Virus record (IMG/VR): IMGVR_UViG_3300031539_000018
Span: 1 to 64,000 of that record
Source: an uncultured virus (IMG/VR IMGVR_UViG_3300031539_000018)
Taxonomy: Duplodnaviria > Heunggongvirae > Uroviricota > Caudoviricetes
Direction: 5' to 3' (one strand)
Length of the DNA: 64,000 nucleotides
Part shown: one piece after another, positions 11 to 63,969 of the stretch
Layout of the letters: each line of letters starts with the position of its first letter
Position numbering within the stretch: position 1 is the first letter of the stretch
Translations under genes and position numbers: made by a program
The notes under the pieces: model-generated
What the model was told of the DNA's origin: nothing
The model's database searches: none
What the model saw: only the letters and a program-made list of their open reading frames with translations

Positions 11-400
11 GTGGAGCGTTGGACGTTCGCCACGGACAAGGTCGAAGGGTTTGCGACGGTGCGTTTCGAGATGGAGCCGGGCCGTTGGGTGCGGGTGACC
101 TTACGGGTCAGGGCTGATGAAGGGGCCGGTGCCGATATGAGGCGGAAGACTAAATGGCGGAACCTTTTGGGTTCATGGAATCTTCAGGTTGATGGCTATC
201 CTGGCGCACCCCATCCGATGAGCGGCCTGGTCAGCTTTGGGAGTGCCCTGTCCGCCAAGGCTACGAGTTCCTTCGAGGGGTTGTTGTCACTTGTCACCAC
301 GGGCTATCTCACGCAGAGCAAAGGGGCTTCTGTGGAGGTGTCCCGTCATGCCAATTGTAAGTGTGCAATTGTTGACGATGTGAAGGATGAGCTGGAGTAG
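11..400 (+). CDS. hypothetical protein (may start before the window)
   Basis: 129-aa ORF on the phage coding strand; no recognisable motif. Confidence 0.4.
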   Translation: MERWTFATDKVEGFATVRFEMEPGRWVRVTLRVRADEGAGADMRRKTKWRNLLGSWNLQVDGYPGAPHPMSGLVSFGSALSAKATSSFEGLLSLVTTGYLTQSKGASVEVSRHANCKCAIVDDVKDELE

Positions 401-414
401 TATTTGACCCCTAC

Positions 415-443
415 TTGACAAGCTGCTGGCTTTGTTGTATATT
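415..443 (+). promoter_or_regulatory. sigma70-type promoter
   Basis: TTGACA (415-420), 17 nt, TATATT (438-443). Confidence 0.75.
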
Positions 444-448
444 GATAG

Positions 449-548
449 TGCTACTGACAGCCACGGCTTTTTTGATTCAGAATAATAGGGGCCATGCGAG
501 AAGCCGGGCTAGTCAGTAGCAGACGGCAAGGCAAAGCGTGGCCCTTAT
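449..548 (+). ncRNA. putative structured leader RNA (hairpin + pseudoknot), copy 1
   Basis: Stem TGCTACTGAC 449-458 / GTCAGTAGCA 512-521; loop segment 485-497 complementary to 536-548; same architecture at 62317-62408. Confidence 0.55.
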
Positions 549-629
549 GATTGGGGGTGCGGGTAGCCCTCCGATGCCGTTGAGTCCTAAGGTCAACTTG
601 GCACCCGCATCCCCATGAAGGGAGCAACA

Positions 630-1334
630 ATGAATTCACTCTGCGAGTGTGGTTGTGGCGAGCGGGTGAGCAAGCCAGGGAACCGGTTTGTCCTTGGGCA
701 CAACTGGCGTGGAAAGAGTGGCCCTAATACCCCCAACTGGCAGGGCGGCAAAAGGGAACTGGCTTGCCTCTTCTGTGGCGAGACGATTCTTCGGAAGAGG
801 AATCAGGCCGGCAAGTATAGCAAGCACTTCTGCCACATAGTATGCCGTGCCCAGTGGCTATCGGAAAATCGGACTGGCCGCAGCAATCCTGCTTGGACAG
901 GTGGCCCAATCGAAGTGAACTGCGCCGTCTGCGGTGAGACCATCCTCCGGACGAAGTATCAAGCCGACAGGTGTAGCGACCACTTCTGCGATATGGCGTG
1001 CAAAGCCCAGTGGCTATCGGAAAACCTGATTGGCCCCAACACTCCCAACTGGCAGGGCGGCAAGTCTTTTGAGCCGTATGGACTGGGGTTCAATGACGCA
1101 CTGAGATTGGCTGTCCGAGAACGCGATGAGTTCACTTGCCAACTGTGCGCCGTGCGGGAGAATGGCCGGGCGCATGACTGCCACCACGCGGACTATGTGA
1201 AAGTGAACAACGATCCTGAGAATCTTACTACGCTGTGTCAGGACTGTCATCGGAGAACGAACTACAACCGGGCCTTTTGGACGAACCTATTTCAAGCGCA
1301 GGTGAAGTTGAATGAATGGAGCTACCGGACCTGA
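630..1334 (+). CDS. HNH homing endonuclease with repeated Cys-rich Zn-binding modules
   Basis: C-terminal RDEFTCQLC...HDCHHADY...N...NLTTLCQDCHRRTN HNH motif; N-terminal CECGCG and two CxxCG...HFCxxxC repeats; SD GGAG before ATG 630. Confidence 0.9.
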   Translation: MNSLCECGCGERVSKPGNRFVLGHNWRGKSGPNTPNWQGGKRELACLFCGETILRKRNQAGKYSKHFCHIVCRAQWLSENRTGRSNPAWTGGPIEVNCAVCGETILRTKYQADRCSDHFCDMACKAQWLSENLIGPNTPNWQGGKSFEPYGLGFNDALRLAVRERDEFTCQLCAVRENGRAHDCHHADYVKVNNDPENLTTLCQDCHRRTNYNRAFWTNLFQAQVKLNEWSYRT

Positions 1335-1447
1335 ATATAAGGGCGCGGTGAGGCCTCGGGTAGACTGGAACCCATGTGCCCCGTTGCCCCCGCGCCCTTA
1401 GAAATGTCGGTTCGATAGTTCAAGGTCATGGTGAATAGAATATAGAC

Positions 1448-1476
1448 TTGACAAACCCCTAAAGCTACTGTATACT
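1448..1476 (+). promoter_or_regulatory. sigma70-type promoter
   Basis: TTGACA (1448-1453), 17 nt, TATACT (1471-1476). Confidence 0.75.
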
Positions 1477-1544
1477 ATTACGGATATCCCTGTCTACCCG
1501 GACGATGGGTGGGCGGGGCTTTGTCGTATATGGGGAAGAATCAG

Positions 1545-62260: not shown

Positions 62261-62282
62261 GAGTGAGTGAAGTAAATGAGGC

Positions 62283-62311
62283 TTGACAAACCGGAAGGAA
62301 TCTGCTATACT
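62283..62311 (+). promoter_or_regulatory. sigma70-type promoter of tnpB
   Basis: TTGACA (62283-62288), 17 nt, TATACT (62306-62311) with extended TG. Confidence 0.82.
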
Positions 62312-62316
62312 GATAA

Positions 62317-62408
62317 TGCTACAGGTGCGGCGTGGTTGTTTTGTTATAGAAGGGGTCATGCAGGCCACGCGCACCTGTAGCGGGACGCAAGGCAATGTGT
62401 GACCCCTT
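62317..62408 (+). ncRNA. putative structured leader RNA (hairpin + pseudoknot), copy 2
   Basis: Stem 62317-62337 / 62363-62382; loop segment 62350-62362 complementary to 62396-62408; covaries with the copy at 449-548. Confidence 0.55.
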
Positions 62409-62420
62409 TGACATAAGGCG

Positions 62421-63632
62421 ATGATTGTACAGAAGAGCCATAGGATACAACTGAGACCCAACAATGAGCACCGAAGCGGTTTCAACCGCTGGGTTGGTGC
62501 TTACCGTTGGACTTACAACTGGGCGCTAGAACAGAAGAAGACAGCCTATGAGCAAGAGGGCAAGTCACTGAGTAAGTACGGTGTGCAGAAACTCTTGACT
62601 ATTGAGAAACACACGCTGGAAAGGGCGTGGCTCAATGATATCCTGCGAGACACGCTTGTCAATGCAATATGGAACATGGACAGGGCATACCAGAACTTCT
62701 TCCGGCGGGTCAAGAATGGAGAGGCCAAAAAGGGTTTCCCAAAGTTCAAGTCAAGACGGACGGCGCGGCGCGTTTTCCACGTCACGGCGTACCTCGTGCA
62801 ATTGAGCGAAGACCGACGGAGCGTCAAGTTGCCTAAACTTGGATGGGTTAGGATGAGCAAGGCCCTGCGATTTGAGGGCAAGATGGTTGGGACAGTGGCT
62901 GTCAGTGAAGAGGCGGGGCGGTGGTATGCATCCTTCGTCGTTGAGACTGAGATACCCGATCCTCCGGATCGTAGTGCTGACCCTGTGGTGGGCATCGACG
63001 TCGGTATCAAAACGCTAATGACGCTTTCTGATGGGAAGCGATATGAGAATCCGAAGGCTACCTATGAGCTAGAGAAGCTACTGGCGCGGTCACAGCGCCA
63101 ACTATCCTGCAAGACTAAGGGGAGTAAGCGGCGGGCTAGGGCAAAGCTGAGAGTCCAGCGGATACAGAAGCGGATCAAGGATGTGCGGGTAAATGCGGCA
63201 CATCAAGCCACGGCGGAGGTGACTAGGGACTACGGCCTCGTAGCTATGGAGGACTTGAATGTCAAAGGCATGGTCAAGAATCGTCACTTGGCAAAGGCCG
63301 TGTCAGACTCCAATTTCAATCGGTTGCGCCAGCAGTTGACGTACAAGACCGCGTGGAGCGGCAGTAAACTGAGGCTCGTGGACCGTTGGTTCCCGTCCAG
63401 CAAGCTGTGCTCTGAGTGCGGTTGCATCAATGATAATCTGACACTTTCAGATAGGAGGTGGACTTGCGATTGTGGGGCTGTTCATGACAGGGACCTAAAC
63501 GCTGCCCAGAATATTCTAGCGGCGGCGCTAAAGTTGGCCGACGAATCGGCGGTCACTGGGCGTGGAGGGATAGGGGCCTCAAGTCCTCCCGATGAAGCGT
63601 CAAGCGGGCAGCAGGAGGTGATAGATGCATAA
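62421..63632 (+). CDS. tnpB: TnpB-family RNA-guided endonuclease (IS200/IS605/IS607 OrfB; Cas12 ancestor)
   Basis: N-terminal HTH (RIQLRPN...RWTYNWAL), GFPKFKS, RuvC I VGIDVG, RuvC II MEDLNV, Zn finger CSECG/CDCG, RuvC III HDRDLNAAQNI. Confidence 0.95.
   Translation: MIVQKSHRIQLRPNNEHRSGFNRWVGAYRWTYNWALEQKKTAYEQEGKSLSKYGVQKLLTIEKHTLERAWLNDILRDTLVNAIWNMDRAYQNFFRRVKNGEAKKGFPKFKSRRTARRVFHVTAYLVQLSEDRRSVKLPKLGWVRMSKALRFEGKMVGTVAVSEEAGRWYASFVVETEIPDPPDRSADPVVGIDVGIKTLMTLSDGKRYENPKATYELEKLLARSQRQLSCKTKGSKRRARAKLRVQRIQKRIKDVRVNAAHQATAEVTRDYGLVAMEDLNVKGMVKNRHLAKAVSDSNFNRLRQQLTYKTAWSGSKLRLVDRWFPSSKLCSECGCINDNLTLSDRRWTCDCGAVHDRDLNAAQNILAAALKLADESAVTGRGGIGASSPPDEASSGQQEVIDA
63537..63603 (+). ncRNA. putative omega-RNA scaffold core overlapping the tnpB 3' end
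   Basis: Hairpin GCCGA/TCGGC; GGCGTGGAG...hairpin...GATGAAGCGTCAA arrangement recalled from tnpB 3' ends; boundaries uncertain. Confidence 0.5.
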
Positions 63633-63691
63633 GACCCGCAACCCCGAATTGACGGGGTCCTCATTCGCGTGGGCAATGGCTATTGTGAAGG

Positions 63692-63969
63692 GTGCACCCC
63701 ATGCGCATGTGGGGGATTCGCGCAGATGCGGGTCTGAAACGACGACCCCAAACGTGCACCCCATGCGCATGTGGGGGATTCGTACGGCAAGTATTGCCAG
63801 AAGCCGCAGAAACCCGTGCACCCCATGCGCATGTGGGGGATTCGTTGGCCCTGTGCTTGCGGCTGCGCAGGACGAAGTGCACCCCATGCGCATGTGGGGG
63901 ATTCGTCAAATGACAAGCGATTGCACGCCAGCATACGTGTACCCCATGCGTATGTGAGGGGGGGATTCG
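63692..63969 (+). CRISPR. CRISPR array: 4 identical 29-nt repeats + 1 degenerate, 4 spacers
   Basis: GTGCACCCCATGCGCATGTGGGGGATTCG at 63692, 63754, 63816, 63877; degenerate copy 63937-63969; unique spacers of 33, 33, 32 and 31 nt. Confidence 0.95.

Follow-up and report, generated by a model that had tools for sequence, protein, structure and literature searches.

What are the same promoter and the same folded RNA leader doing in front of two different nuclease genes of one phage? The question is raised by a 64,000-nucleotide (nt) stretch of DNA from an uncultured Caudoviricetes virus (positions 1–64,000 of the 69,345-bp soil-phage record G000, IMG/VR IMGVR_UViG_3300031539_000018; the whole stretch is called the window hereafter), in which an HNH endonuclease gene near the left end and a tnpB gene near the right end are each preceded by one copy of the element (copy 1 and copy 2, respectively). 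The fold of this leader is real and well supported for so few sequences, and the element is a new, lineage-restricted structured 5′ leader on selfish phage genes, which places it among elements of a known kind. Its function can be argued from the fold and its surroundings, and most likely it just tunes the amount of selfish nuclease that is made.

A shared leader fold at two nuclease genes

The original prediction, made from the letters of the window, held that both loci share a promoter, a GATA(G/A)TGCTAC stretch, a long hairpin and a pseudoknot between the hairpin loop and a strand further downstream, and direct reading of the two loci confirmed all of these parts. They are arranged as follows, where SD stands for Shine-Dalgarno and MFE for minimum free energy:

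Positions 415 to 443, plus strand: predicted copy 1 promoter, TTGACA, a 17-nt spacer and TATATT, agreeing with the consensus at 11 of 12 positions.
Positions 444 to 449, plus strand: copy 1 discriminator GATAGT, invariant in all four known leader variants except for one purine change.
Positions 450 to 520, plus strand: copy 1 hairpin P1, running from GCTAC to GTAGC, with 19 pairs and a fold z of −5.8.
Positions 485 to 497, plus strand: 5′ strand of the copy 1 pseudoknot, within the loop, with an SD-like AGGGG and an AUG at 494–496.
Positions 521 to 535, plus strand: copy 1 linker, with GCAAGGCAA at 526–534.
Positions 536 to 548, plus strand: 3′ strand of the copy 1 pseudoknot (the tail), GCGTGGCCCTTAT, with an anti-SD-like CCCUU at 542–546.
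Positions 552 to 615, plus strand: a second hairpin, rich in GC, that separates the leader from the ribosome-binding site of HNH, found in copy 1 only and seen in MFE folds.
Positions 62283 to 62311, plus strand: predicted copy 2 promoter, TTGACA, a 17-nt spacer and TATACT, with TG before the −10 element, agreeing with the consensus at 11 of 12 positions.
Positions 62318 to 62409, plus strand: copy 2 leader, comprising a hairpin (62318–62381), the loop strand (62349–62362), a linker and the tail (62396–62409).

In copy 1, positions 450–462 pair with 507–520 (13 pairs, with A511 bulged) and 464–469 pair with 501–506 (6 pairs), which leaves a loop at 470–500 that includes ATAGGGGCCATGC at 485–497. 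The predicted structure of the hairpin thus stood, while its end had to be moved, as the stem closes at 520 and not at 522. The loop strand and the tail, which lies 16 nt downstream of the hairpin, form 13 contiguous pairs, two of them G-U, with a duplex energy of −21.0 kcal/mol over the 12 pairs 486–497/536–547, and the corresponding strands of copy 2 form 14 contiguous pairs. The z values were obtained against shuffled sequences, copy 2 reaching −5.3, and a loop–tail helix of equal length arose in 9 of 20,000 shuffles of copy 1 and in 19 of 20,000 shuffles of copy 2. Between the tail and the start codon of the nuclease gene lie 82 nt in copy 1, where no T-run follows the second hairpin at 552–615, and 12 nt in copy 2.

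Sequence variants and covariation of the fold

Four leader variants were available for comparison: copy 1 (HNH), copy 2 (tnpB), v3, which precedes the second tnpB copy of the related 143-kb record G001, and v4, which lies on a 1,025-bp metagenome contig (L226) whose upstream flank differs from that of the lineage. G001 carries two diverged phages, A and B, joined at a common tnpB cassette; phage A is ~99.5% identical to window positions 1–64,000 (324 ungapped mismatches), while phage B shows 72–78% identity to phage A and the window in neighbouring genes. Over its terminal 5.8 kb, G000 does not differ from the end of G001, and as a whole it corresponds to the first phage of G001 plus that end. 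The window's leader is of the type found in the first cassette of G001, and its TnpB protein and repeat array are of the type found in the second. One of the two records is probably chimeric across this repeat, or else the phages recombine there, and G000 may be an assembly product or a natural recombinant that crosses the common cassette. The leader sequences are unaffected by a possible chimera in G000, since independent contigs carry each of the variants.

I built a covariance model (R1) from copy-2-type sequences only, and this model detected copy 1 at 43.9 bits (E ~5e-12) and copy 2 at 131 bits. With filters off, no third plus-strand match appeared in the window, the next-best hit having an E of 0.77. 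R1 was also used to align all four variants, and in the resulting alignment, which is thereby fitted to the hairpin, standard pairs fill 122 of 122 cells. As had been proposed, the stems differ in sequence while their pairing is kept: 9 pairs changed on both sides (8 of the 19 hairpin pairs, relative to copy 2, and 1 of the 13 pseudoknot pairs), none was broken, and in another 5 pairs of the pseudoknot just one partner changed, through G-U. The C-G to T-A swap reported for the pseudoknot is real and falls at alignment columns 49/99, and a second swap, A-U to U-A, was found at columns 43/105. None of 500 shuffles reached any of five pairing measures, and sliding the partners by 1–3 columns lowered pairing to 30–45%. 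It is the plus strand that folds, because the G-U combinations in 5 pseudoknot pairs become A-C mismatches on the opposite strand.

Copies 1 and 2 are 74–81% identical, and the most sequence-conserved part of the leader is not the stem but the two pseudoknot strands. The tails of v3 and v4, both of them altered, still pair 12/12 with an unchanged loop, and within the linker AGGCA alone is invariant over the four variants (v3 reads GTGAGGCATAA). When copy 2 is compared with its counterpart in G001 (window 62388–62402 and G001 136184–136199), 7 differences fall within 15 nt of linker and tail, although the cassettes around this patch are identical over 125 nt upstream and 650 nt downstream, and pairing is kept throughout. 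The patch may reflect gene conversion or local diversification.

Predicted promoter and transcript start

Both promoters are predicted to be near-consensus and of the sigma-70 type. In copy 1, the −35 element TTGACA(A) occupies 415–421 and the −10 element TATATT occupies 438–443, with a 16-nt gap after TTGACAA. The window contains 4 instances of this promoter pattern, where 0.03 would be expected, the copy 1 promoter being among the four, and of sites of the form TTGACAA-N16-TAnAnT, phage A has 4 and phage B has 3. The promoter shared by the two loci is hence the ordinary type of this phage, and it is the discriminator and the leader that are special. From the discriminator (GATAAT at 62312–62317 in copy 2) into the hairpin, both loci read GATARTGCTAC, and in both copies the hairpin begins 6–7 nt past the −10 element, so that the predicted transcript would carry 0–2 unpaired 5′ nt. 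Spacing places the predicted start site of copy 1 at, or no more than 2 nt from, G450. Neither leader was found to contain an antisense promoter.

After the next phage promoter (TTGACAA-N16-TATACT, within window positions 1448–1518) come a GC-rich hairpin of 13 pairs and then CTTTGTCGTA, and the same arrangement of promoter and hairpin is kept in phage B (G001 77842–77920). This hairpin could be an attenuator or another 5′ stabiliser.

The leaders head inserted nuclease cassettes

Both leaders belong to inserted units with the following parts, in which CRISPR stands for clustered regularly interspaced short palindromic repeats:

Positions 423 to 1467, plus strand: HNH cassette, an insertion relative to phage B, bounded by ACTTGACAA at 413–421 and 1446–1454.
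Positions 630 to 1334, plus strand: HNH endonuclease gene, 234 amino acids (aa) from AUG 630, with the SD sequence AAGGGAG at 618–624.
Positions 62264 to 63969, plus strand: tnpB cassette, made up of promoter, leader, tnpB and mini-CRISPR array; some members of the population lack it.
Positions 62421 to 63632, plus strand: tnpB, 403 aa, with Pfam and PHROG matches.
Positions 63692 to 63969, plus strand: mini-CRISPR array of five 29-nt repeats (the last degenerate, 33 nt) and spacers of 33, 33, 32 and 31 nt.
Positions 63692–63720, 63754–63782, 63816–63844, 63877–63905 and 63937–63969, plus strand: the five array repeats.

Besides the leader and the HNH gene, the HNH cassette holds a duplicate of the −35 region. 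It is an insertion because phage B and another related locus (G003) join its flanks across 12 nt, that is, the counterpart of window 119–422 (90% identity) is followed there by 12 nt and then by the counterpart of window 1468–1523. The whole tnpB cassette is present or absent in the population, since empty-site contigs skip it: in 4 of 4 DNA runs, such contigs match the window up to 62260 or 62263 and continue into a sequence resembling the start of dnaB, where ~20 of 30 positions agree, by eye, with the window after the array. Positions 62263–63690 are near-identical between phages A and B despite flanks of only 72–78% identity, and the array spacers differ. On the v4 contig, promoter, leader and tnpB lie in yet another flank, and similarity begins at the −35 element. 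In their cassettes, the leader hairpins start 27–54 nt inside the left boundary. The earlier claim that the element travels with nuclease genes therefore holds inside this lineage, as both copies ride on inserted nuclease cassettes.

The HNH protein matched the Pfam HNH family at an E of 6e-4, which is below the cut-off for acceptance, and PHROG HNH endonuclease families with a best E of 4e-18; an in-frame AUG lies upstream of its start, at 615. TnpB matched OrfB_IS605 (8e-24), Cas12f1-like_TNB (5e-22) and HTH_OrfB_IS605 (4e-13) in Pfam and a transposase family in PHROG (2e-113), and the D/E/D residues of RuvC are present, by eye. An antisense promoter-like site (minus strand, 62662–62612, agreeing with the consensus at 11 of 12 positions) lies inside tnpB and is directly followed by a short terminator-like hairpin, which may be due to chance.

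The array begins 59 nt after the end of tnpB, and the 5 unique spacers of the arrays match only the arrays themselves among the DNA compared. Two viral contigs that encode TnpB relatives of 37% and 41% identity (L142, ~2455–2630, and L138, ~1040–1180) each carry three spaced repeats of ~29 nt with a GC-rich palindromic core that adjoin tnpB, after or before the gene, and a conserved GCCTGTGGAG...GAAGCAGGAA stretch precedes the repeats in both. This TnpB clade may be repeatedly associated with arrays, and tnpB and array together could be an independent association of TnpB with CRISPR, or else the array could be used by a system of the host. A comparable arrangement is the Cas12r-CRISPR locus of the Thermus Lalka phages, where a TnpB-like gene and a short intergenic region accompany 29-bp repeats and spacers of 31–33 nt (bioRxiv 10.64898/2026.04.20.719267). 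The surroundings of copy 2 have this Cas12r-CRISPR architecture, down to the sigma-A-type promoter described for the Thermus locus (bioRxiv 10.64898/2026.04.20.719267). The two systems also differ: LalCas12r (564 aa) and the window's TnpB share no significant BLASTP similarity (best E 0.032 over 20 residues), the repeats of the two loci are not the same, and the Cas12r mRNA as described has no structured leader, with a −10-like element a few bases before the start codon.

Family membership and distribution

The original prediction of a structured RNA, which was assigned to no family, agrees with the Rfam searches. Against Rfam 15, the whole 64 kb gave 0 matches at the gathering threshold on either strand. 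The HEARO/IscB omega-RNA, IS605-orfB motifs, pistol, twister, hatchet, hepatitis delta virus (HDV)-like and hammerhead models contained in that set found nothing, and the same applied at this threshold to the c-di-GMP-II, preQ1 and ZTP riboswitches. A permissive search of both loci (E ≤ 10) returned just microRNA, long non-coding RNA and small RNA models at 3.5–17 bits, compared with thresholds of 45–100, which is chance level, and the best of these matches had an E of 0.9 or worse.

Sequence collections were scanned with patterns, three of them applied to IMG/VR on different parts of the motif, a fourth to IMG/VR for the 3′ part, one to metagenomes and one to 185,579 species genomes. All scans led to this lineage, to contig L226, or to chance matches that failed the model or the pairing. 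The first IMG/VR pattern gave 3 stretches, all from this lineage, and the second gave at least 118; among the matches listed, 121 loci were compared, of which only 5 loci of the lineage had 12/12 loop–tail pairs, all others having at most 10. The third gave 9 stretches, 6 of which lay outside the lineage and were, by eye, devoid of promoter or pseudoknot, and the 3′-part pattern gave 7, with 0 of the 5 non-lineage stretches passing the model (best E 4.1). The metagenome pattern gave 8 stretches, namely 3 of the lineage, 1 new variant (L226) and 4 chance stretches, of which L227 and L230 had no match to the model and L232 and L233 share the core of L230. The species-genome pattern gave 5 stretches, and 0 of 5 passed the model. 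When both loci were compared by blastn with 50,697 phage records, nothing matched at E ≤ 1.

The model was further run over 85 sources (80 TnpB loci, 4 HNH loci and the end of G000), where it matched 4 loci of the lineage only, followed by L142 (E 0.13) and L172 (E 2.7). The leader was not detected ahead of 76 further TnpB relatives (≤41% identity) or of 3 further HNH relatives (32% identity), and among four loci related through the large terminase subunit (TerL), all from the same samples, it is absent from G003 and G004. A scan for any hairpin with a loop–tail helix upstream of tnpB was positive in 11 of 77 non-leader loci (the 76 other TnpB relatives plus L137, a truncated locus of the lineage) against 8 control segments taken from within reading frames, and hence showed no enrichment. 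As judged from these collections, the leader appears to be an undescribed RNA confined to one small soil-phage lineage plus one ~1-kb contig, and it does not appear to be a general companion of nuclease genes, so that the idea of its travelling with such genes fails as a general rule. Likewise, of the model and collection searches that had been suggested, the former recovered copy 1 and neither led beyond the lineage and the one contig.

Two other candidates were tried and rejected. Local alignment spoke against the leader mimicking either the 3′ end of tnpB or the region downstream of HNH. A ToxI-like RNA of a type III toxin-antitoxin system was dismissed, as each locus has a single unit rather than tandem repeats and no terminator-like site after it.

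A proposed role in cis

The reading I favour, with a probability of roughly 45%, is that the element acts as a cis-acting 5′ leader that controls the translation, and probably the stability, of the cassette mRNA. A cis-regulatory role is favoured over a free non-coding RNA because no terminator-like site lies after the pseudoknot and before the gene in either copy, and because the tail ends 12 nt before the start of tnpB. The strong sigma-70-type promoter would start the transcript at or beside the first base of the 19-pair hairpin, and a 5′-terminal hairpin is a classic protection of the 5′ end of an mRNA. The 3′ half of the loop, RAGGGGYCAUGC, which combines an SD-like sequence with a start codon, would be locked in the 13–14 bp pseudoknot by its partner, the anti-SD-like tail GYRUGRCCCYUU just upstream of the nuclease gene. 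The loop and the real ribosome-binding site would be alternative partners of this tail, the AUG of the loop would open a short upstream frame that ends at or near the tail, and the making and breaking of the pseudoknot would set the number of ribosomes that reach the nuclease gene. Promoter and leader would then form a portable expression unit, which now heads two selfish cassettes, one with HNH and one with tnpB and the mini-CRISPR array.

Several features of the sequences are consistent with such a role. In the pseudoknot-free MFE fold of copy 1, the CCCUU of the tail (542–546) pairs with the AAGGG of the HNH SD sequence (618–622), and holding the tail in the pseudoknot raised the mean unpaired probability of positions −14 to +3 in all four variants (0.32 to 0.59, 0.66 to 0.76, 0.54 to 0.72 and 0.35 to 0.60). 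The invariant AUG of the loop opens frames of 18, 14, 10 and 17 codons, and in v4, where tnpB has no evident SD sequence, the upstream frame stops 6 nt before the tnpB AUG.

Copy 1 shows a chain of small frames (494–550, 547–618 and 615/630), known in one sequence version. The stop codon of its upstream frame (548–550) overlaps an AUG at 547 (AUGA, 547–550), which opens a second small frame that crosses the second hairpin and stops at 616–618, where it overlaps AUG 615 and abuts the SD sequence at 618–624.

A number of points weigh against this role in cis. The shifts in accessibility are modest, and they were computed with folding software that does not handle pseudoknots. There is no conservation of the upstream peptide, as the four frames end differently, and in v3 the frame stops 37 nt before tnpB; given these unconserved frame ends and tail-to-start distances of 12 and 82 nt, exact coupling cannot be matched across the copies. 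The SD-like AGGGG lies just 2 nt from the AUG of the loop, which is short for efficient initiation. The direction of any control is ambiguous too, as the pseudoknot might either keep the anti-SD sequence off the SD sequence or hide the start of a coupled upstream frame, two arrangements of opposite polarity. Promoters, start sites and the transcript itself are predictions from sequence, and a look for sequencing runs that contain the locus yielded no RNA run. Finally, there are effectively two independent leader lineages, copy 1 and the tnpB type with its three near-identical variants, and since the tnpB-type hairpins are so similar, the compensatory changes amount to one deep comparison of copy 1 with the rest.

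A bolder version of the same idea, which I regard as improbable, is that the leader represents a new class of portable RNA switch, in which a factor acting in trans opens or locks the pseudoknot and ties nuclease synthesis to a certain moment of infection or to cassette copy number. Such a factor may be a small molecule, an RNase, or a complex of TnpB and its guide that recognises the helix of CAUGC/GCAUG plus G4/C4, which looks like the stem of the neighbouring CRISPR repeat after an exchange of strands.

Alternative explanations

The leader may instead be a passive 5′ stabiliser or insulator, with a hairpin at +1 that guards the mRNA from decay dependent on the 5′ end and makes expression independent of the insertion site, without any switching. 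The 0–2 unpaired 5′ nt left by a hairpin 6–7 nt after the −10 element fit this well, as do the strong hairpins that likewise follow the promoter at 1448 and its phage B counterpart. However, stabilisation needs a stem rather than a sequence, yet the pseudoknot strands with their SD-like, AUG and anti-SD-like motifs are the most conserved part, and the Thermus phage locus does without a structured leader; I consider a purely passive role unlikely, if still worth weighing. Greater doubt attaches to a ligand- or protein-sensing RNA of the riboswitch kind, or a self-cleaving ribozyme, that gates the nucleases to cell state or infection stage. An H-type pseudoknot with invariant unpaired AGGCA (linker) and GATART (5′ end), the lack of any matching known family and the concentration of seven differences in 15 nt of linker plus tail within otherwise identical cassettes could all be taken to suggest it, but real classes are usually widespread whereas this distribution is very narrow, the helices are long and near-perfect with no obvious binding pocket or multi-stem junction, the linker is incompletely conserved (v3), and all Rfam models of these classes fail even at E ≤ 10. 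The leaders could also function as single-stranded DNA (ssDNA), either as the subterminal left-end hairpin of an IS200/IS605 insertion sequence (IS) or as another recombination site that moves the cassettes. Their position 27–54 nt inside the left cassette boundary, tnpB as one of the cargoes and the tolerance of ssDNA for G-T wobbles are compatible with this. Yet the ends of IS200/IS605 elements are short imperfect palindromes, unlike a 19-pair stem with a 30-nt loop and a 13-bp pseudoknot; no right-end hairpin was found, as R1 detected none in the window, the remaining 5.8 kb of G000, or G001 beyond its three leaders; the Y1 transposase TnpA (PF01797) occurs in 0 of 2 records (G000 and G001), with 6 of 14 control genomes positive, although a host-encoded TnpA is conceivable; the HNH cassette is not an IS; and a consensus promoter precedes the element by exactly one promoter-distance. 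All this makes a role as DNA quite improbable.

Processive antitermination, in which a put-like RNA would modify its own polymerase for read-through of the cassette and beyond, draws on the position of the leader directly after the promoter, on the genes of the window all lying on one strand and on the location of the HNH copy ahead of terminase and structural genes as well. It is very improbable nonetheless, as phage B has the same structural block behind an equivalent promoter without the leader, and as the hairpin at 1488–1518 is the exception to an absence of plus-strand terminator-like sites downstream in either cassette. Just as little weight falls on the leader being the functionless leftover of an old duplication: there are just two deep copies with a narrow distribution, but at 74–81% identity 8 of 19 hairpin pairs have changed on both sides and 0 are broken, which 0 of 500 shuffles match. 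A guide scaffold, or a partner of TnpB and the array resembling a trans-activating CRISPR RNA (tracrRNA), is the hardest to credit. The leader does adjoin tnpB and the mini-array, and an RNA of this sort is required by some small type V systems, as the Cas12r report states (bioRxiv 10.64898/2026.04.20.719267). Against this, the energy of leader–repeat duplexes was equalled by 8–98% of shuffled repeats, the alignment to the tnpB 3′ end and pre-array region (63350–63700) was equalled by 233 of 300 and 95 of 300 shuffles, the same RNA heads an unrelated HNH gene without an array, and the analogous Thermus system works without a tracrRNA according to that report (bioRxiv 10.64898/2026.04.20.719267). 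With no repeat complementarity beyond that of shuffles and no similarity to the 3′ region of tnpB, the tracrRNA reading was rejected.

Neighbouring features of the window

All long reading frames of the window lie on the plus strand, and no tRNA genes were found in it. A 160-aa open reading frame at 2049–2531, just before the large terminase gene, has a PHROG family annotated 'RNase E' as its sole match (E 8e-10); by its position, it is more likely to encode the small terminase.

Relation to known systems and meaning

The cis-acting role favoured here has precedents in other mobile and selfish elements. In the repZ/repA genes of IncI-alpha/IncB plasmids, the loop of a leader pairs with a distal sequence beside the ribosome-binding site to form a pseudoknot, a short upstream frame is coupled to the gene, and the pseudoknot is short and opposed by an antisense RNA. 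The phage leader shares the pairing of loop and distal sequence and the upstream frame, and differs in its longer pseudoknot, in that no antisense promoter was found, and in its genes and hosts. The transposase mRNAs of IS10 and IS200 limit tnpA translation by fold-back inhibition and by 5′ stem-loops that are simple stems; they resemble the present case in being a mobile element with its own promoter and mRNA structure, unlike which the phage cassettes carry tnpB or HNH as cargo and a pseudoknot, with no tnpA found. Similar in the kind of gene affected are the homing-endonuclease genes I-TevI/II/III, segB and mobE of phages, for which regulation by stable RNA structures that hide the ribosome-binding site has been described (PMC2988022). 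Those T-even leaders, like the one described here, place a stable structure on a selfish nuclease gene with a dedicated promoter nearby, and are thought to restrain translation; they are simple hairpins that hold the SD sequence and form only on transcripts from upstream promoters (PMC2988022). Here, by contrast, a hairpin with a long loop–tail pseudoknot follows the cassette's own promoter, and the SD sequences (618–624 and ~62413–62416) lie outside the fold.

With its occurrence in a single soil-phage lineage, the leader is unlikely to be a widespread regulatory class, and its context, tnpB followed by an array of 29-nt repeats, may be more interesting than the leader itself, as this cassette of TnpB and mini-CRISPR array is relevant to the repeated conversion of TnpB into a CRISPR effector. 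If the proposed role in cis is true, the leader would be a compact, covariation-backed example of how promoter, RNA fold and nuclease gene are combined in one movable expression unit, and a helpful model for the study of how toxic nucleases are restrained.

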